This document shows, in pieces, positions 1,445 to 49,189 of a stretch of DNA of 64,000 nt. Positions within the stretch are counted from its first letter, which is position 1. Each line of letters starts with the position of its first letter. Source of the DNA: a virus; IMG/VR virus record IMGVR_UViG_3300032431_000004, positions 10,824 to 74,823 of that record; one strand, written 5' to 3'. The notes under the pieces are model-generated. The model was given only the letters and a program-made list of their open reading frames with translations. It did not search any database and had not been told where the DNA came from. The position numbers were made by a program, and so were the translations under genes.

Positions 1445-1746
1445 GCTGGGCAACAAGATCAAGGAAAGTCCTGCTAGAGATTGCGGCCGCGAATCCTCAG
1501 CAGCAAGGGGAATCCCTAGAGGACTGGAGCAAGCGGATGAAGAGAGCGATCGTAGATGGCTACCCATTTATGCAGAGAGGCGGGTTTGCGTATCAGCATT
1601 GGTGCCGCGAGAGGTCGGTAGTCTTGCGCGAGCTGGGCATCGTAGCGGGATTGCCTAAAAAGGGAAGTAGGGCGATCGCAGAGCTGGCAGCCATGCCCCA
1701 CACTGGACAGCTGAATCTATTGGATGTAGGAGATAGAAATGAGTAG
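1441..1746 (+). CDS. Hypothetical protein
   Basis: ATGA coupling to the upstream gene. Confidence 0.65.
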   Translation: MSWATRSRKVLLEIAAANPQQQGESLEDWSKRMKRAIVDGYPFMQRGGFAYQHWCRERSVVLRELGIVAGLPKKGSRAIAELAAMPHTGQLNLLDVGDRNE

Positions 1747-3001
1747 GGAACTAGAGTCATGGTTCAGCGGCGGCGGGCTAGCTGACATAGGGTATGCGGA
1801 GGCTGGCCTTACCCCGACCTTTGCCGTAGAGCTTGACGACGCGATCGCCAGTGTGTACCGGGCAAACCTTAACGATCATTGCCTGACTGCTGACGTTCGC
1901 AATGTCGAATTGTACGGCACCACAAGGTTCTGGTTTCACGTTTCGCCGCCTTGCACTAATGCGTCGGTAGCGAAAACGAATGGTGGTGAAACTGAGCTAG
2001 ACATTCAGCTAGCGCGGGCGATAGTGCGGGGCATTGAACGGCGATCGCCCTGGTTCAGTCTGGAGAATGTATGGGGCTATCGAACGTTTGAAAGCTTCAG
2101 GCTGATCCTAGAAGCCTTGTCTAACAATGGATACAATCTGGCGTACTGGCATCTGAATAGTGCTAATTACGGAGTGCCACAGACTAGGAAGCGGCTAATC
2201 CTGTGCGCGAGCAGAGTAAAACGGGTTGTTCAGCCTCACCCTACCCATGCCAAAGCCCCTGACCTATTTGCACTGCCTTGGGTCGGTTGGTATGAAGCGA
2301 TCGCGGATTTGGTGCCCACACTACCAGAGACTCAATTTGCAAAATGGCAGCTTGAACGGTTGCCAGAAGAGCTGAGAGCAATCACGGCACTGGATCAAAA
2401 TCTAAAAACCTGTCTCGTTGAGACTAAGAATTCTAATCGGCAATGGGGCAAAGGATACCGTGTTGGCAATCTGCCACGGGAGTTACTGATTGGTGATCAG
2501 CGCAGCAATGGGGGGCGATCGCTTTCAATCCGTAATGAGGATCAGCCGTGCTACACAGTTGAGGCTTCTAAAAGCGGCGTTCATGCTGGCAGGGCGTTAC
2601 TAATTGAAGGGACTGAGCAGCGGCGCACAACGGTGTCGCATCGAGGGGAGCTAGAACCATCGTTCACTATCAAGGCATCGATCCACAAGTCTTCTACTCG
2701 GGCATACATCCCTGAACCTTTCATGGTTGATGGGCTTGCCAACAATCGCGGGGCTTCGGTAACGATTGTGACAGGCGATCGCCCTTCCTATACCGTTAAA
2801 GCCTCAGCCTATAAGCAGGCATCGCGGGCATACATCCCTAACGGTAGGGTCGTTACAATCACCCCTGAATGCCTCGCACGGTTTCAGTCAGTGCCCAGTT
2901 GGTATCGGCTATCTGGTAAGGCTTCGCTGGATTGCAAGGTACTGGGTAACGGATTCCCTTGCTTACTGGCTCAGGCATTAGTTGAGGCACAAAAGCTATG
3001 A
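1739..3001 (+). CDS. DNA (cytosine-5) methyltransferase with repeated TRD-like segments
   Basis: Motifs I FSGGG, IV SPPC, VI ENV, VIII QTRKR, IX ECLARFQ, X LGNG. Confidence 0.92.
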   Translation: MSRELESWFSGGGLADIGYAEAGLTPTFAVELDDAIASVYRANLNDHCLTADVRNVELYGTTRFWFHVSPPCTNASVAKTNGGETELDIQLARAIVRGIERRSPWFSLENVWGYRTFESFRLILEALSNNGYNLAYWHLNSANYGVPQTRKRLILCASRVKRVVQPHPTHAKAPDLFALPWVGWYEAIADLVPTLPETQFAKWQLERLPEELRAITALDQNLKTCLVETKNSNRQWGKGYRVGNLPRELLIGDQRSNGGRSLSIRNEDQPCYTVEASKSGVHAGRALLIEGTEQRRTTVSHRGELEPSFTIKASIHKSSTRAYIPEPFMVDGLANNRGASVTIVTGDRPSYTVKASAYKQASRAYIPNGRVVTITPECLARFQSVPSWYRLSGKASLDCKVLGNGFPCLLAQALVEAQKL

Positions 3002-12764: not shown

Positions 12765-13064
12765 AAAAGTAGGCAGTGTCATGTTGACTGTCATACTTTT
12801 GGCAACATACTCTAACCCATACTCAGTAAAGCTTAGACACCTGCCGTCGCACTGTCATTGGCATTAAGAGTTTTAGATTCTGAGATTAGGATTATCTCTA
12901 AGAAGATTAGATATTTAATTCAGTGAATTAATAACTCTGAATCCTCTCCTATTTTGAAATCAGAAAAATCAATGACAGTGCGACGGCAGGCATCTAAGCC
13001 ATATATACCAAGGCTTTAAGTGTGTTGCCAATTTGTTGACTGTCACGTAGACACTGCCTGTTTT
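12765..13064 (+). repeat. Palindromic dispersed element, copy 2 (full, ~300 bp)
   Basis: ~100-bp imperfect inverted arms around an AT-rich centre ttaattcagtgaattaa. Confidence 0.95.
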
Positions 13065-22764: not shown

Positions 22765-23584
22765 CAATCTCCCAAACCCTCCTCATAGTTTCATCACGGC
22801 TCTCCTGCCCCAGCCCGCGTGAATCGTCGCCACCCTCAGCCGATCGCATTTCCGGCTTTTCATCTTTGTCTATCTGCTTTTGTTTGAGCGCGTACGCCTG
22901 AAGCGCTTGGAGTCTGCGAGATTCGGCACCGATCAGACTCATGCGCGTGCGGGTAACTTCTAGAATCTCACTCATCAGTTCAGATTCAGGGCACCCAAGC
23001 GCGATCGCTTTTAGTAGGTCATTCGTTTTCTTGGCTACAGTAGCCATGTCCTTTTCCCGATATGCCTCAGACATCTCCTTACTAATTTGCCTCAGCCGTC
23101 CCCAGTGTTTAGCGCTAGGTTCTCCATCGTTCATTCGTTTTAAGAGGCTGCGAGAAAACGTATTCATTAGGGCAATGTCTCTCCGCATCCCTAGCAGCTC
23201 ACCATCTGCGATCGCGTCTTCATACCCTGGCTGCATGGCACCGGGCAGAGCGTCGGTATAGTGCCCTTCATGAATCATTCCCGGTGGGCGGTGCAAATCT
23301 TGCGCGATCGCTTCTATCGCACCCATTGACAAACTTGGGATAGAATTTGCCAGCACTATAGGCGGAGGCGGCAGCGGTGGCGAAACATGTTTTACTGGTT
23401 TCGGCTCACGCGCTTTTAGTGTTTTAGATTGATCCTCTATCCATTTAGCTTTGCCAGCTACAACCCTAAGCCTAGAGTAGGATGGAGCGTTTTCGTCACC
23501 AGTTTCCTCACGGCTTAAATCTTTAAGCTCAACCTTATTATTGATGAAAAAACGGTACAAAGAAGCCCAGTCTATTTCAGCCAT
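22757..23584 (-). CDS. Putative terminase small subunit
   Basis: Upstream of terL; helical, N-terminal HTH-like; call is positional. Confidence 0.5.
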   Translation of the reverse strand: MAEIDWASLYRFFINNKVELKDLSREETGDENAPSYSRLRVVAGKAKWIEDQSKTLKAREPKPVKHVSPPLPPPPIVLANSIPSLSMGAIEAIAQDLHRPPGMIHEGHYTDALPGAMQPGYEDAIADGELLGMRRDIALMNTFSRSLLKRMNDGEPSAKHWGRLRQISKEMSEAYREKDMATVAKKTNDLLKAIALGCPESELMSEILEVTRTRMSLIGAESRRLQALQAYALKQKQIDKDEKPEMRSAEGGDDSRGLGQESRDETMRRVWEIVT

Positions 23585-23641
23585 GTTTCGCACTTAAAAC
23601 ACGAAACCAGAATAACCGAAACACGAAAAGATGCCTAAAAC

Positions 23642-23676
23642 ACGATCGCCGCCTTCAGTCCATAGGCGGCGATCGT
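23642..23676. terminator. Hairpin/terminator
   Basis: acgatcgccgcct/aggcggcgatcgt stem. Confidence 0.55.
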
Positions 23677-23698
23677 CAATTTATTCTATGGGCGATCG

Positions 23699-24100
23699 CT
23701 AGTCTTCCTTTTCAAAAGGTTCAACCTCCAAAATATATAGCGGATACTCTAGCCACCCAAAAGATAAGGACGGCTGCAATGTCACTATAAGAATTTTCAG
23801 TGCGTCCCATAGGGTAGCTGGCCTTACCTTGAACTGTGGCTCCGCGCAGACAATGTTGCAAGATTTATCACTTTTCACTTTTTCCAAAAGCTCTTCCATT
23901 TTTTCTTTTTCAAAGCTGGCGCGATCGCCTTCCCCGTTGCTATGTCTGCTGGCTAGGTATTCTAACTCGTGTTTTTCTTGGATGGCTCGTACATCCGCCT
24001 CGCTCCTCAGTAGTGATGCATAGCCTAGGAAAGTTTGCCTTATTGCTCTGTTAGCGTCCTTTGAGGTTACAAAACTGTCAGACCAATCAAAAGTACCCAT
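23699..24100 (-). CDS. Hypothetical protein
   Basis: ORF with GGAG upstream. Confidence 0.55.
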   Translation of the reverse strand: MGTFDWSDSFVTSKDANRAIRQTFLGYASLLRSEADVRAIQEKHELEYLASRHSNGEGDRASFEKEKMEELLEKVKSDKSCNIVCAEPQFKVRPATLWDALKILIVTLQPSLSFGWLEYPLYILEVEPFEKED

Positions 24101-44094: not shown

Positions 44095-45471
44095 TTAGAC
44101 GTGCCCGACTAGCACTGCATTGACACCTGTAAGCGCTTCCCACCTTTCCAGGATCACGGTGCAATAGAGGTCGCTCAGCTCAAAGCCGTAGACGGTGCGA
44201 TCGCCTTCCATCTGTTGAGCTGCGATTAAGCTCATGCCGCTGCCTAGGAATGGGTCAAAGATTAGATCGTCGGGCTTGCCATATTTCTCAAAGCACCATT
44301 CAGCAAGCGCGATCGGCTTTTGGGTTGGGTGAACTCTTTTTTGTCCATGCTCTGAAGCCTTTAAGCAGCCATTCCACATGTGACGAAAGATGCGTACAGA
44401 CGTGGGCTGGTTTGTCCATGCTAATTCAGCATCGGCAAAGTCCCCAGAGTTTTCTTTGTCCCAAATTAGCCAGCAACTAGAGTCTGGCAGTGCGCTTGAA
44501 AAGTGATTAGCTCCCCACCAAAACTGGTTAGGCATTGAGCGAAGGAGGTTGAAGGCGGCGATCGCGGTTTTGGTTGAATCGTCACCAATGACAGCTGGAC
44601 GAGGGATGCTTTGGATCGGCTTCTTCGAGAGAGAAGAAGCCGATCCAAAGGGCTTTGCTCTGTCCTTCATTGGGTCAAACTTCATTCCGTACGGAGGATC
44701 AGCCCACACCATCCCCACCGCCCGATCGCCCAGCAACTTCTTAACATTCCCCTCATCAGTCGAATCACCGCAGCAGATCCGGTGCCGCCCCAATTGCCAG
44801 ATCTCACCCAACTTTACGCGACTGGCGATCGCGCCTTCGTCTGCTGCATCTAGCAGGTCTGCGATCGCCTCCTCATCCTCTTCCTGTGGGATGCCTTCCC
44901 CCTCTGCCTCTAACTCTTCATACCTCAGCAGGGCATCTAAGTAATCGCCATCAAAACCAATCGGCAAAGAATCCTCATCAGCCAGCCCTTCTAATTGCTT
45001 AGAGAAGCCAGAGTCAAACATCTTGGCGATATCGTGGGCGCTGAAATCGCTACCCGCCATGGTCAGAATGTTGTGAGAAAAGCCAAACGCTTCAGCTTGC
45101 TTCTCTGACAATGCATCAACTCCAAACTTCACAGGTACAACCCATTCGCCATCAGCCTTGAGTGTGCCGATCCCTTTGGGTGGATCTTCACCCTGCTGTC
45201 TCATCAACGCTAGTCGGAATAGGAGAGCCTTAGTTCGTCCGTTACCGTAGACAAACCCACCTTCACCGCCATTTAGGTTGCTATCCCACTTAGCACAATC
45301 GGCATACCCATAGGACGCGATTGCTTCATCCAACATCTGAAGGTCATGCAACTTTGCATTATCCTTCCAAAGCTGCAAGTCGAGATCGAACGCTGGCAAG
45401 GGCACGTAGCGGATGTGTAGAACATCGCCATCAACGGCTGAGTGGTTAACTGAAGATTCTAGTATCGACAT
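44095..45471 (-). CDS. N6A/N4C DNA methyltransferase (beta class) with ParB-like N-terminus
   Basis: LGRHRICCGDST, DPPY, HPTQKP, DPFLGSG; NAK.H and GNGR in N-terminus. Confidence 0.9.
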   Translation of the reverse strand: MSILESSVNHSAVDGDVLHIRYVPLPAFDLDLQLWKDNAKLHDLQMLDEAIASYGYADCAKWDSNLNGGEGGFVYGNGRTKALLFRLALMRQQGEDPPKGIGTLKADGEWVVPVKFGVDALSEKQAEAFGFSHNILTMAGSDFSAHDIAKMFDSGFSKQLEGLADEDSLPIGFDGDYLDALLRYEELEAEGEGIPQEEDEEAIADLLDAADEGAIASRVKLGEIWQLGRHRICCGDSTDEGNVKKLLGDRAVGMVWADPPYGMKFDPMKDRAKPFGSASSLSKKPIQSIPRPAVIGDDSTKTAIAAFNLLRSMPNQFWWGANHFSSALPDSSCWLIWDKENSGDFADAELAWTNQPTSVRIFRHMWNGCLKASEHGQKRVHPTQKPIALAEWCFEKYGKPDDLIFDPFLGSGMSLIAAQQMEGDRTVYGFELSDLYCTVILERWEALTGVNAVLVGHV

Positions 45472-45550: not shown

Positions 45551-45967
45551 ATGGAACCTACTGATATTGACTCAATCGCGCTTCGAGTTGATGCTCTAGA
45601 AAAATCGCAAGATGCGGCAGCCCAAATCGACACACAGCAGCAGGCACTAATTCAAAGTCTCTCTGAGGTGATTGGTCAGCTAGCTGCTGAAAAGCAGGCC
45701 GCAAAAGCGGAAGCTAGTCTTGGTCAGAAGCTAATGGGATCTTTGATTTTTACCATTATATTACTGGGATTTAGCATAGATCCCAGTACCACACGCATCA
45801 AAAGTGAAGGGGCTGAAGTTGGGCTGCGAGAAGTCCCTTGGGGCGTTTCAGCAGGCTGCTTACTAGCGATCGCAGTAGTAGTTTTGAACCAAGAACAAAC
45901 GGATAGAGGGATTGCGGTACTGGCAAGCATCAGAGGTCTAGCGGTCATCCACAAAGGCAACGGCTGA
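45551..45967 (+). CDS. Membrane protein, putative holin
   Basis: Two hydrophobic helices; directly upstream of endolysin. Confidence 0.5.
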   Translation: MEPTDIDSIALRVDALEKSQDAAAQIDTQQQALIQSLSEVIGQLAAEKQAAKAEASLGQKLMGSLIFTIILLGFSIDPSTTRIKSEGAEVGLREVPWGVSAGCLLAIAVVVLNQEQTDRGIAVLASIRGLAVIHKGNG

Positions 45968-45983: not shown

Positions 45984-46730
45984 ATGGCAACACTCCACAT
46001 CATAAAGTCAACCTGGTTAAAACAGGCCGCTGTTCAGTCATCAGGGCTGTCAGACGGCAATAAATACGCCGCTAGCGCAGGTCAGACCTTTGAGCTGGCC
46101 AGCTTTGAGTCAATTGAGGATCTGTCAAAAAATGATGGGGACAGCCATGTCAAAATTTTCTTAGCTGAGCCAGTTAAAGAAAAAAGGACATGGTATGTTT
46201 TCCAGCGTGACGTTGCCATCATGGATGGCGATCGCGTTTTGTTCCCGTCGCCTGAAGACGATGAACGTACCGCCAACCGTAAGCTGGCGATCGCGCATGA
46301 CTATTCAGGAATTGTCTTGTGGCTACCCGGTGGGCGAAAGGTTCACTCTGACGAGCCGATTATTAAGTCTGGCAATTTCTCATGGGGTGAAGCTAGCCAC
46401 GGCGGCGAGCGCATCCCTAAAGACAAGCAGACGGTAGAACGTATAGTCAAGCTGGCGATCGCGCTTCAGGACGCTAGGGCGGCTATCGGTAGACCGTTCC
46501 GAATTACCTCATGGTATAGACCAGAGCCGTTCAACTCACGGGTGGGCGGGGCATCGCGATCGCAGCATCTAAATGGCGGTGCCGTAGACATTGTGGTTGA
46601 GGGCTACAGTGGCGCTCAACTGGCAAGGAAGATCAAACCATTCTGGCCTGGTGGCGTTGGGATCTATCCCGGTAACCGTAAACATATTCTGCACTTGGAT
46701 ATCGGAACTAAACGATCTTGGGGAGTCTAA
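45984..46730 (+). CDS. Endolysin, peptidase M15 family
   Basis: ITSWYR..N..VGGA..SQHL.G.AVD...LHLD zinc-peptidase motifs. Confidence 0.88.
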   Translation: MATLHIIKSTWLKQAAVQSSGLSDGNKYAASAGQTFELASFESIEDLSKNDGDSHVKIFLAEPVKEKRTWYVFQRDVAIMDGDRVLFPSPEDDERTANRKLAIAHDYSGIVLWLPGGRKVHSDEPIIKSGNFSWGEASHGGERIPKDKQTVERIVKLAIALQDARAAIGRPFRITSWYRPEPFNSRVGGASRSQHLNGGAVDIVVEGYSGAQLARKIKPFWPGGVGIYPGNRKHILHLDIGTKRSWGV

Positions 46731-47028
46731 AAACAGGCAGTGTCTACGTGACTGACATGCTTTTGGCAACACACTTAAAGCCTTGGTATATATGGACTAG
46801 ACACCTGCCGTCGCACTGTCATTGGTTTTTCTGATTTCAAAATAGGAGAGGATTCAGACTTATTAATTCACTGAATTAAATATTCAGATCTCTTAAGGGT
46901 GATCCTAGGCAGCAAACCTAAAACTACTAGATGCCAATGACGGTGCGACGACAGGTGTCTAACGCATACTCAGTACAGGTTTGAGTATGTTGCCAAAAGT
47001 ATGTCAGTCAACATGACACTGCACTAAT
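46729..47028 (-). repeat. Palindromic dispersed element, copy 7 (full, inverted)
   Basis: Begins within the endolysin stop codon; same arms and centre. Confidence 0.95.
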
Positions 47029-47043
47029 TCAGGGGGTTTCTAA

Positions 47044-47379
47044 GTGGATCAACTACTTTGCCATTTTTGGGGCGACTTCATGACCCAGACATCTTGGATG
47101 GCGCTGACAAAATACGAGCGAGGGCTTAGGGGTTGGTTACCAGCGATCGCCCACGGCATTATTTACACCTGTTGGTTCCTACTTTTAACTCAGGACGTGC
47201 GATCGCTTTTAATCATCGGGGTGACTCATATCGTGATTGATCACTACCGGGTTGCTGGATGGTGGGCGCGGCTGATCAACTGGGAATGGGTCAGCCCTCA
47301 GCCCGTCATCCCCCTTTGGTGCATGGTCGTAATTGACCAAACGATGCATTTAACGATCAACTATCTGGCGCTGAGATAA
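47044..47379 (+). CDS. DUF3307-like membrane protein
   Basis: HFWGDF..Q..WMA..K, HG..Y, H..ID, DQTMH. Confidence 0.75.
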   Translation: MDQLLCHFWGDFMTQTSWMALTKYERGLRGWLPAIAHGIIYTCWFLLLTQDVRSLLIIGVTHIVIDHYRVAGWWARLINWEWVSPQPVIPLWCMVVIDQTMHLTINYLALR

Positions 47380-47922
47380 ATGTTCTCAAGAAAAAAGAAG
47401 GAGCAACCGAAAAGGGATGACTCAAATTACATTTATTTTGAATCAGATCTGGCGTTCCCTGCGGCGGCGGGTAAGTCGCGCCATGCATTGGCGGCATACC
47501 GAATCAGCGATCGCACCCGATATTTACTACCAACTAAATCAGAAAATCAGGGCATCATTGCGGCAGCACTGTCGGCTGAGCGTCGGGCTGAAAGGCGATC
47601 GCTTATAGAAGAGCTGTTTTACGGCACGCCAACCCACGGTGTCAGCTTCACCGCTGCCTTCAGCTTCCCAGTCAGAAGCACCACCATTTTTGCTTATGGG
47701 CTGAGGCTAGCAACTCCCGGCTATGATTCCAATGCGATCGCCCGTGGAGTTTGCAAGTTTTTGCAATGGCAGGCGGGCGAACTGAGGATAGATCGGTTGC
47801 TTTTCCAAGGTGAGTTGAGCATCCCTGAAGCGGATTTACTTCGAGCAAACCACGCAATAGTGAAGATATTTTGGCTAAGCGCGATCGCTTCAAAATATGC
47901 GTCAATCATTGGCAGCCGCTAG
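47380..47922 (+). CDS. Hypothetical protein
   Basis: Abuts upstream stop. Confidence 0.55.
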   Translation: MFSRKKKEQPKRDDSNYIYFESDLAFPAAAGKSRHALAAYRISDRTRYLLPTKSENQGIIAAALSAERRAERRSLIEELFYGTPTHGVSFTAAFSFPVRSTTIFAYGLRLATPGYDSNAIARGVCKFLQWQAGELRIDRLLFQGELSIPEADLLRANHAIVKIFWLSAIASKYASIIGSR

Positions 47923-48377
47923 GGTTTACGCTAATAGAGCAACTGGCCGCGATCCTGATAGTTGCGGTGTTGAGCGCGATCGCATTGCCTTCCTACCTGA
48001 ATCAGAAGGATAAGGCGGAAGTTGCCCACGCTACCTTAATTGCTCAGTCGTTCGTTGTCCCTTTGCTGGAATATCGCCTGATGCATGGCAATTTCCCTCC
48101 TGACGTTAATGCCAATGTTGCCCCTGTGGGGTTAGAGGATGTCTGGGTCAATGGGTCAGCAGCTCCATTGCGATCGCCGTTCGACTATGAACACCACGGA
48201 CTAGGGAACGGCGGTGGGGATGGCATGGGGCAATGCCTCATAATGATTACCTGGTTTGGCAAAAACCAGATTAGAGATCCCGCAACATCGGTTTACAGCG
48301 CGATCGCCAGTGGGGATGATGTGATTATCAGGGTGGCTACTTACGATTGCGACCAACCACGTAGGAGTATTCGCTAA
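47871..48377 (+). CDS. Type IV pilin/pseudopilin-like protein
   Basis: Prepilin motif G|FTLIE, hydrophobic helix ...IALPSY, Y...HGNFP, C-terminal Cys pair. Confidence 0.85.
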   Translation: MAKRDRFKICVNHWQPLGFTLIEQLAAILIVAVLSAIALPSYLNQKDKAEVAHATLIAQSFVVPLLEYRLMHGNFPPDVNANVAPVGLEDVWVNGSAAPLRSPFDYEHHGLGNGGGDGMGQCLIMITWFGKNQIRDPATSVYSAIASGDDVIIRVATYDCDQPRRSIR

Positions 48378-49103
48378 ATGCTGTTAGACGATATTGAGGC
48401 TGCCATCTCCACCGATAACGGTAGCTTATTGCTGCACTACCAGCCGCTCAAAAAGTTGCCAGATCTGGACAAGCCACCGCTCTTTTTTGAAGCACTCGTT
48501 AGAATGAAGAACGGCAAAAAGATTGCCCCTGCCAGCAATTTCATTACTGCGGTGCTACACAATCCATCGCTGGCGATGCGACTAGATGAATGGGTGCTGA
48601 GGTCTGTAGCGGCGCAAATGCGGACGGACGACTTTAGATATGCCGTGAACGTTACCCCGGCGTCCCTACACCAGCCTGGGTTTCTTCACCTGGTAAAGGA
48701 CATATTTGAGGACATTCCGAAGCATAGGCTGGTGATTGAGGTGATTGAAACCAGCCAGCTACACGAGGAAGCGATCGCATGTGTCAAGGATCTGAATGAA
48801 CGGTTTTGCACCTACCTTGACGACGTAGGTGAGGGGTGGTCAAATCTGAGGGCGATCGCTAATCTGTCTGTTTCCGGCTTAAAAATCCACGGGCGCTACA
48901 TTTCTAATATGTCTGCCTACAAAAAACATCGGGCAATCGTAGGCGGCGTCTTTGACATCTGCCAGAGCCTTCAGCTGGAATGTGTGTGTGAATGGGTAGA
49001 GACTCCGTTAGAAGTTACATCCGTAGCGCTAAGGGCGGCAGACTACCCATTCCTGAAGCTGTACCTACAGGGCTATGAGATTGGGAGGCCAGAGGCTAAG
49101 TAG
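48378..49103 (+). CDS. EAL-domain c-di-GMP phosphodiesterase
   Basis: HYQP, EALVR, AVNV, IEV.E, LDDVG.G.S, LKI, E.VE, LQGY. Confidence 0.9.
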   Translation: MLLDDIEAAISTDNGSLLLHYQPLKKLPDLDKPPLFFEALVRMKNGKKIAPASNFITAVLHNPSLAMRLDEWVLRSVAAQMRTDDFRYAVNVTPASLHQPGFLHLVKDIFEDIPKHRLVIEVIETSQLHEEAIACVKDLNERFCTYLDDVGEGWSNLRAIANLSVSGLKIHGRYISNMSAYKKHRAIVGGVFDICQSLQLECVCEWVETPLEVTSVALRAADYPFLKLYLQGYEIGRPEAK

Positions 49104-49128
49104 TGGCGCATTCAGCCTAAGCAAAAAG

Positions 49129-49154
49129 AAGCCCCGCCAATACGATGCGGGGCT
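49129..49154. terminator. Terminator between convergent operons
   Basis: agccccgc/gcggggct stem with A-tract on the left. Confidence 0.6.
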
Positions 49155-49189
49155 GTCTGTGTGCGTGTCGCTAGTATTCTAGCGTTGAT

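Follow-up and report, generated by a model that had tools for sequence, protein, structure and literature searches.

Pairing of a type IV pilin-like gene with a predicted c-di-GMP phosphodiesterase gene in two otherwise unrelated cyanophages

The stretch of viral DNA considered here (64,000 nucleotides, hereafter the window) comprises bases 10824-74823 of a 74.8-kilobase (kb) linear contig, IMG/VR record IMGVR_UViG_3300032431_000004. The contig derives from a freshwater metagenome, and CheckV estimates it to be 78% complete. Downstream of the lysis genes, the window contains a block of four tightly packed plus-strand genes (47044-49103). Two of them are the subject of this report: a gene for a type IV prepilin-like protein and, directly behind it, a gene for a stand-alone EAL-domain protein predicted to hydrolyze cyclic di-GMP (c-di-GMP). 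Both genes prove to be real, apparently intact, and under selection, and they recur together in a second cyanophage with an unrelated backbone. Very likely, the two genes are an accessory pair that selection maintains in the phage and that is directed at the type IV pili and c-di-GMP signaling of the host. That host is cyanobacterial, given the density of the HIP1 octamer GCGATCGC, which occurs 184 times in the 64 kb against a chance expectation of one or two.

The linkage of the two genes is best seen in the second phage, which is represented in IMG/VR by two records (G001/G002) that are 100% identical over 16.4 kb. Five genes on one strand encode, in this order, a homolog of the central tail fibre J (904 amino acids), an EAL protein, orf201, the minor-tail-like orf220, and a pilin-like protein. 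The ATG of the EAL gene overlaps the stop codon of the J gene, and the five-gene run converges on the genes for a 1036-residue tail protein and the tape measure, forming a tail-tip operon. The EAL protein of this phage is 36% identical to that of the window (E 2e-47), and the pilins are 47-48% identical. An all-against-all comparison of both phages returns only seven common proteins, namely a primase/helicase-like protein, a 167-residue protein, a tape-measure fragment, an endolysin domain, a DUF3307 protein, the pilin, and the EAL protein, among which the pilin is the best conserved (47%). The same comparison finds no common capsid, portal, or terminase protein; hence, the phage backbones are unrelated.

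Within the second phage, the pilin and EAL genes lie within 1.4 kb of each other, in an order that differs from that of the window and with two genes between them. Its DUF3307 gene is located 23 kb from the pair, and the second gene of the window block (gene 2) has no counterpart there. Only the pilin and EAL genes thus make up the conserved unit, which is carried by cyanophages of freshwater and mats, and not the four genes together, since DUF3307 and gene 2 are unlinked to the pair elsewhere. A preliminary description of the window, made from its letters alone, had treated the four-gene operon as one functional module; this view holds for the linked pilin and EAL genes, while DUF3307 and gene 2 fall outside the core. 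A survey of the gene pair in prophages had been put forward in the same description as a check on the idea; the pair recurs in an otherwise unrelated cyanophage. Judged from these comparisons, the pairing of pilin and EAL is not accidental.

The pair is rare. In IMG/VR (2.9 million contigs), scans with a widened EAL profile and with a profile restricted to the pilin head recover it in these records and in no others. The phages of INPHARED yield neither a DNA match nor a pilin match, and the EAL matches obtained there are at most 27% identical, stem mostly from host-like records, and are doubtful. Four proviruses (L005-L008) carry distant EAL genes and lack a prepilin gene, so the pairing is not general for phage EAL proteins. 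Among 185,579 species-representative genomes, a scan with the EAL profile detects no close copy of the EAL gene and no cyanobacterial copy; the EAL proteins returned are at most 30% identical and belong mainly to proteobacterial metagenome-assembled genomes (MAGs). One annotated relative, with 42% identity, is present on a 3.3-kb contig of a Microcoleus MAG. A metagenome scan with the pilin profile returned generic pilin N-termini, with no close relatives among the matches listed. The locus L060 was considered as a pilin relative and rejected, as it is an unrelated bacterial pilA-pilT locus.

The EAL gene (48378-49103, plus strand) encodes 241 amino acids. Its ATG directly follows the TAA of the pilin gene, and a GGAG motif lies 12 nucleotides upstream of this ATG. 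The protein scores 122 bits against the Pfam EAL family PF00563 (cutoff 31.3). With MucR (5m1t), Lmo0131 (4q6j), and TBD1265 (2r6o) as reference enzymes, residues Q22, E38, R42 (EALxR), N91, E121, and E124 (EVIE) align with those of active phosphodiesterases, as do D148, D149, K169, E205, E208 (EWVE), and Q231. All of these residues are invariant in an eight-member subfamily spanning 36-91% identity. Every catalytic position that the preliminary description had listed for a stand-alone EAL domain (E, N, E, DD, K, E, and Q) is thus retained. Two motifs deviate from the textbook pattern. The KID motif reads KIH; relatives have D, H, or N at its third position, which is thus unconstrained. Loop 6 reads DDVGEGWSN versus the consensus DDFG(T/A)GYSS, with substitutions (F to V/I, Y to F/W/Y, S to N) that are conservative and kept across the subfamily. 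On the strength of its residues, the enzyme is probably active.

In architecture, the phage protein resembles PdeH (YhjH), MucR, Lmo0131, and TBD1265, which likewise consist of a single EAL domain of about 240 residues with the full residue set. It differs in being phage-borne and pilin-linked, and its identity to any of these enzymes is only 24-30%. The loop 6 signature of the subfamily, D-D-[VI]-G-x-G-[FWY]-S-N, and the variable third position of K-I-D also set it apart from them.

The pilin-like gene (47871-48377, plus strand) starts with TTG, overlaps gene 2 by 52 nucleotides, and encodes 168 amino acids. The leader is conserved in those relatives whose gene calls start at the codon corresponding to this TTG. 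Residues 1-18 form the prepilin leader MAKRDRFKICVNHWQPLG (47871-47924), which ends in the Gly(-1) of a predicted PilD site. In the cleavage motif MAKRDRFKICVNHWQPLG-FTLIE, residues G18, F19, T20, I22, and E23 are invariant in five relatives. The leader is followed by the conserved N-terminal helix alpha1-N (residues 19-52; 47925-48026), the putative assembly scaffold, in which F1, T2, I4, and E5 of the mature numbering are invariant. A hypervariable head with a Gly-rich loop and C122 comes next (residues 53-157; 48027-48341). The protein closes with a conserved C-terminal tail, …Y-x-C-DQPRRSIR, where C160 and R168 are invariant (48342-48377, stop codon included).

Profile comparisons agree with this layout. 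The protein passes NCBIfam TIGR02532 with 23.3 bits (cutoff 16.3; 23.3-26.2 across the three phage records), and the motif G18-F19TLIE23 is in place, so the earlier identification of a GFTLIE prepilin stands. It falls below the cutoff of Pfam N_methyl PF07963 (16 versus 21.2), a family that is on record for the relatives P0002 and P0004. In an alignment with the family profile, F19 corresponds to the first residue of the mature pilins PilE (Neisseria), PilA (Geobacter), and PAK (Pseudomonas). The N-terminal half resembles major rather than minor pilins, with the N-termini of major pilins and GspG as best profile matches. FimU-type homology (GspH/FimT family) was not detected, as GspH matches at E 0.009, far below the cutoff.

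An AlphaFold2 model of the pilin (predicted local distance difference test score, pLDDT, 67) contains helices at residues 21-59 and 62-72 and a sheet of three strands (104-112, 120-128, and 151-160). The 11 best Foldseek hits of this model in the PDB are all pilins, with probabilities of 0.95-0.99, template modeling (TM) scores of 0.35-0.44, and a best E-value of only 0.015. C122 and C160 are invariant in all pilin relatives, and the pair fits the C-terminal disulfide region of type IV pilins, with the bond itself being a prediction. Genes for a prepilin peptidase are absent from all of the phage records; cleavage of the pilin would consequently need the PilD of the host.

Natural variants illustrate how the block evolves. 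Contigs from two other freshwater studies carry relatives with about 90% identity over the whole block. Longer contigs recorded for protein relatives measure 17,965 nucleotides (P0013/P0034), 27,597 (P0015), 37,922 (P0040), and 15,545 (P0038). All four frames remain open in the variants, and every indel is either in frame or compensated. Gene 2 shows an indel of −3 nucleotides, the pilin gene gains 6 and 12 nucleotides at 48213/48214 in the Gly-rich loop (two or four codons), and the EAL gene contains a +1/−1 pair six bases apart that restores the frame. A count of 15 synonymous versus 14 nonsynonymous codon changes, taken from 35/358 listed differences, gives a weak hint of purifying selection.

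Variation is concentrated in the pilin head. Some contigs match both flanks of the head but skip 129 and 150 nucleotides within it (residues 53-96 and 107-157). Compared with the allele group P0003/P0034, the window pilin is 83% identical in the leader and 85% in the N-terminal helix, 39% in residues 53-96, 54% in residues 97-157, and 91% in the last 11 residues. Dual coding probably accounts for part of the conservation of the leader: between 47871 and 47922, the last 17 codons of gene 2 are, in another frame, the first 17 codons of the pilin gene. For both a gene 2 relative (91% identity) and a pilin of the divergent group, the recorded source is a JGI contig of 17,965 nucleotides. If the contig is the same, as the equal length suggests, there would be nearly identical phages whose main difference is the pilin head. 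A conserved scaffold combined with a fast-changing, exposed head is what would be expected of a surface-displayed subunit under diversifying pressure, and the hypervariable head between conserved ends constitutes a directly testable arms-race prediction.

These observations bear on one competing explanation, in which the block, whether a piece captured from a host or a random patch of accessory genes, is a functionless passenger that is unselected in the phage. Its location would suit such an origin, as the block is found at a convergent-transcription junction beside a mobile-looking repeat, which is a typical insertion site, and DUF3307 and gene 2 show no link to the pair in other phages. Composition points the other way. 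The guanine-plus-cytosine content of the block is 0.51 versus 0.50 for the phage, and HIP1 is even denser (5.3 per kb in the block versus 2.8 per kb), so that the block is not a recent capture. The lack of a close copy in the species-representative genomes, the preservation of all frames by the variant indels, and the invariance of catalytic and assembly motifs at 36-48% identity between unrelated phages are equally hard to reconcile with a passenger. The proviso of the preliminary description, that the block might be a host fragment under no selection, is largely refuted by the same facts, and we regard a passenger role as highly improbable.

A selected pair directed at the pilus and its signaling could act in several ways, and the receptor question provides the starting point. 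Cyanobacteria rely on type IV pili for motility, aggregation, buoyancy, and DNA uptake. On Synechococcus, cyanophages have been seen attached along these pili, and infection occurs preferentially in piliated cells (bioRxiv 10.1101/2025.09.20.677514). Motility and aggregation of Synechocystis are under the control of c-di-GMP, as is, via CdgR and CRP-type factors, the expression of minor-pilin sets (bioRxiv 10.64898/2026.03.27.713163; 10.1101/2020.12.15.422378). Against this background, remodelling of the pilus for receptor masking or exclusion, aided by a reset of c-di-GMP, is the specific role we favor, at a confidence that lies about midway between acceptance and rejection.

For this role we infer processing, pilus incorporation, enzyme activity, expression timing, and the exclusion phenotype alike. 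The phage would make the prepilin, and host PilD would cleave it at G18-F19. The conserved helix would let the phage pilin join the pilin pool of the inner membrane, from which it could enter, cap, or poison host pili. The pilus surface would then show, or lose, a head domain chosen by the phage. In parallel, the EAL protein would hydrolyze c-di-GMP and push the infected cell into a defined pilus state. As the most likely pay-off, the infected or lysogenic cell would be closed to productive adsorption of pilus-binding phages, whether competitors or own progeny; motility or dispersal may be affected secondarily. The preliminary description had proposed a module for superinfection exclusion or for rewiring of host behavior. 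Pili and c-di-GMP as targets remain the best reading, and between these two options the variable head favors exclusion.

Phage-encoded pilins with such an effect have precedent. The P-FimU pilins of prophages, whose genes lie in the tail cluster, become part of a pilus that remains unimpaired; they exclude tip-binding phages and vary strongly in sequence (Sztanko et al., Cell Rep 2026, PMC12952977). The same study notes PilA-like genes (P-PilA) in virulent phages and Xylella prophages, and it does not mention c-di-GMP (PMC12952977). The cyanophage protein shares with P-FimU the type IV pilin-like character, the reliance on host pilus machinery, the high diversity, and the tail or late location, which corresponds to the tail-tip operon in the second cyanophage and to a position after the lysis genes in the window. 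Differences are also evident. P-FimU is a homolog of the minor pilin FimU and is expressed from prophages, whereas the cyanophage protein is major-pilin-like in its N-terminal half and comes from phages in which no integrase was found. The cyanophage head has no detectable host homolog, host pilins not having been compared. P-FimU, unlike the cyanophage pilin, has no c-di-GMP enzyme as a partner. By analogy, the cyanophage pilin may therefore resemble P-FimU in its mode of action, and it is not a member of that family.

Other viral systems approach surface filaments along related lines. The pilins of the SNJ2 provirus of Natrinema (Xiang et al., Cell Rep 2025, PMC12426801) also hijack host secretion and assembly and change the surface filaments of the cell; they are archaeal, occur as two tandem pilins, provide another virus with a receptor instead of hiding one, and come without a second-messenger enzyme. 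Tip, Aqs1, PfsE, and the PlzR pathway in Pseudomonas (PMC11436027, PMC11656802) similarly involve phage accessory genes aimed at type IV pili, whose small products turn the pili off to exclude superinfecting phages. These proteins inhibit PilB, PilC, or PilZ from the cytoplasm, whereas the cyanophage supplies a pilus subunit and an enzyme acting on the upstream signal.

That phage pilins can replace receptors is a recent finding from Pseudomonas. The idea is hereby extended to environmental cyanophages, and the new element is the conserved genetic link between a phage pilin and a c-di-GMP-destroying enzyme. If the proposal is true, these viruses reprogram a major surface organelle of cyanobacteria in its structure as well as its regulation, with consequences for phage competition, bloom and mat behavior, and horizontal gene transfer.

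The competence of the EAL protein, as predicted from its residues, also fits a rewiring of host behavior. Here, lowered c-di-GMP would render the cell motile or non-aggregating or alter its buoyancy or competence, and the phage pilin would build or modify pili, so that the virocell or lysogen is carried towards new hosts or light. In Synechocystis, low c-di-GMP favors motility and high c-di-GMP favors aggregation. The N-terminal half of the pilin is major-pilin-like rather than minor, and SNJ2 pilins become dominant filaments that promote motility and biofilm formation (PMC12426801). Behavior alone, however, predicts neither a hypervariable head between conserved ends nor the placement of the genes at the tail tip in the second phage, and a late operon leaves little time for behavioral change in a purely lytic cycle. 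We consider this explanation rather unlikely, although it is the most credible of the alternatives.

Gene arrangement raises a further possibility, namely that pilin and EAL form a physical pair for signaling or targeting. The (pre)pilin would recruit or regulate the EAL protein at the pilus machine and deplete c-di-GMP locally; in a variant of this scheme, the pilin would serve as a readout of the pilin pool, much as Caulobacter PilA feeds into PleC/PleD. The abutting pilin stop and EAL start (TAA-ATG) suggest coupled translation, and proximity is kept in two unrelated phages despite the different gene order. In Caulobacter, PilA is reported to act as a signal to the c-di-GMP circuitry (PMC7196804). 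The proteins themselves fit such a partnership poorly, since the phage EAL protein has no membrane or sensor domain and only the short prepilin leader faces the cytoplasm. Conservation of this leader is already explained by dual coding, and two genes separate pilin and EAL in the second phage. A physical pair is accordingly given little weight.

The preliminary description had also considered cyclic-dinucleotide counter-defense, in which the EAL protein destroys the c-di-GMP or cyclic GMP-AMP (cGAMP) alarm of a cyclic-oligonucleotide-based antiphage signaling system (CBASS) or STING-type defense, with the pilin as unrelated cargo. Some bacterial STING systems do use c-di-GMP, and phages degrade defense nucleotides with other enzyme families. 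EAL domains are specific for c-di-GMP, which cyanobacteria use as a housekeeping, general messenger, a role that is incompatible with an infection alarm. The known anti-CBASS proteins, nucleases included, have folds unrelated to EAL. In addition, PADLOC returns no match, a defense context is missing, and the conserved linkage to the pilin is left unexplained. This idea is judged highly improbable and was dropped. Whatever probability lies beyond the favored role and these alternatives is left to other roles.

Several points weigh against a selected pair that acts by exclusion. The pilin model is of moderate confidence (pLDDT 67), and its Foldseek hits have weak E-values, none better than 0.015. 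The deviations in loop 6 and KID could mean that EAL activity is reduced or regulated. Only two independent lineages carry the pair, and its linkage could partly reflect a single ancestral co-transfer. Pili as receptors of these phages or their competitors are presumed. In both phages, the pair is located in late units (tail or lysis), and a separate promoter was not found; classical early or lysogenic exclusion thus fits poorly, barring an unrecognized promoter. Finally, neither an integrase nor a serine recombinase was found in any of the three phage records, all of which are incomplete, and prophage status is therefore unsupported.

The second phage adds another component to the signaling axis. 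It encodes a 284-residue membrane protein with a GGDEF domain (L110:2939-3793, minus strand; G002 22939-23793), the gene of which sits between ThyX and the genes for a BstA-like protein and the capsid. The GGDEF signature reads GGDAF, with Ala in place of the catalytic Glu, and is preceded at a distance of five residues by an intact RxxD I-site. The protein is thus probably a c-di-GMP binder rather than a cyclase. With three genes related to c-di-GMP or the pilus, this phage strengthens the view that the signaling axis is a viral target. In the window phage, no GGDEF, PilZ, or ComFB genes were found. A more integrated arrangement can be envisaged, in which pilin and EAL form one device: the diversifying pilin would serve as a receptor mask, the EAL protein would reset c-di-GMP to suit the mask, and the GGDEF protein would act as a third part in the second phage. 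Such a device would be the first known instance of a virus manipulating c-di-GMP signaling in cyanobacteria, and no earlier phage pilin system would have been linked to a second-messenger enzyme. We offer this scheme tentatively, with less confidence than the general role in exclusion.

Two further features of the second phage deserve mention. The BstA-like protein (L110:4793-5590, minus strand; phrog_6287, E 1.3e-7), encoded beside the capsid gene, is a weak homolog of the BstA abortive-infection protein and may be another gene for phage-versus-phage competition. In the J homolog, the J match is preceded by an N-terminal extension of about 165 residues (L002:3055-3550). By eye, this extension looks Hint/intein-like, with a Cys near its start and His-Asn before a Gly run.

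The remaining genes of the block are best regarded as co-transcribed passengers of the pair in this lineage. The first gene (47044-47379, plus strand) encodes a DUF3307 membrane protein of 111 amino acids, with a GTG start and AGGGGG eight nucleotides upstream. It matches Pfam PF11750 with 40.4 bits (cutoff 23; E 3.5e-10) and also phrog_6676 and phrog_2470. Relatives with 34-44% identity occur on 13 unrelated phage contigs of about 130 kb, with neither pilin nor EAL nearby. DUF3307 is hence a common phage gene that comes first in the operon and lies outside the conserved core. In one relative of about 90% identity, five of the seven changed codons within the first 15 DUF3307 codons are nonsynonymous, and later changes are mostly silent; the early differences (window 47044-47090) are close to the end of a contig. 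Translation might in fact begin at the ATG at 47080, although homologs align from residue 4.

Gene 2 (47380-47922, plus strand) follows directly, with the stop and start codons of genes 1 and 2 abutting (TAA-ATG), and encodes a conserved protein of 180 amino acids with no predicted membrane segment. It has no match in Pfam, PHROG, NCBIfam, PADLOC, or the PDB, and its profile likewise finds none in PDB/Pfam. A structural Atlas search gave no usable match, and a shallow-alignment scan of IMG/VR returned nothing. The AlphaFold2 model (pLDDT 38) is unusable. The family is small, with 17 representatives among 1.84 billion proteins and relatives at 91% and 55% identity. Taken together, gene 2 is a real, conserved gene that is specific to its lineage.

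The four plus-strand reading frames had been placed at 47044-49103 in the preliminary description, directly after copy 7 of a dispersed element, and both the coordinates and the neighboring element are correct. The element copy (46726-47043) fills the space between the endolysin stop and the DUF3307 start and marks the upstream boundary of the block. It has inverted arms, measures about 300 nucleotides, belongs to the repeat families D3, D4, and D5, and is present in about nine copies. Folding predicts this copy to be a single giant hairpin (free energy −137.5 kcal/mol, z −13.9). Further copies are intergenic and located near 12766, 18166, 35439, 58014, 60006, and 61865. The element may mark cassette junctions.

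Transcription of the block was approached from both ends. The gap from the element to the first start codon is only 14-22 nucleotides, and no sigma-70-like plus-strand promoter was detected between the element and 47044 by a scan that covers cyanobacterial promoter types poorly. Two hairpins close the block at 49127-49184, at its junction with genes that run leftward towards it. One of them, the GC-rich stem GCCCCGC…GCGGGGC, has the better U-tract on the minus strand, and the second stem (49169-49184) is terminator-like, with a T-rich tail on the plus strand. The fold of these hairpins has z-scores of −2.8 (plus strand) and −4.0 (minus strand). The preliminary description had called the block a moron, which strictly denotes an independent transcription unit with its own promoter and terminator around a gene dispensable for lytic growth. 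The block is phage-borne and accessory, and hairpins follow the EAL gene; a promoter of its own is unproven.

Elsewhere on the contig, the genes for the portal, the large terminase, the head protease, the major capsid protein, and a tape-measure protein of 1537 amino acids point to a siphovirus-type phage. A DNA methyltransferase gene follows the tail genes on the minus strand. The lysis genes upstream of the block comprise a putative holin gene (45551-45967), the product of which is a membrane protein, and the gene for an endolysin of the M15 peptidase type (45984-46730). The window phage carries two DNA methyltransferase genes, at 1739-3001 (plus strand) and 44095-45471 (minus strand), which match phrog_116 and phrog_498. 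The sequences GATC and CGATCG are contained in the HIP1 core, and the two methyltransferases may protect or mark HIP1 sites.

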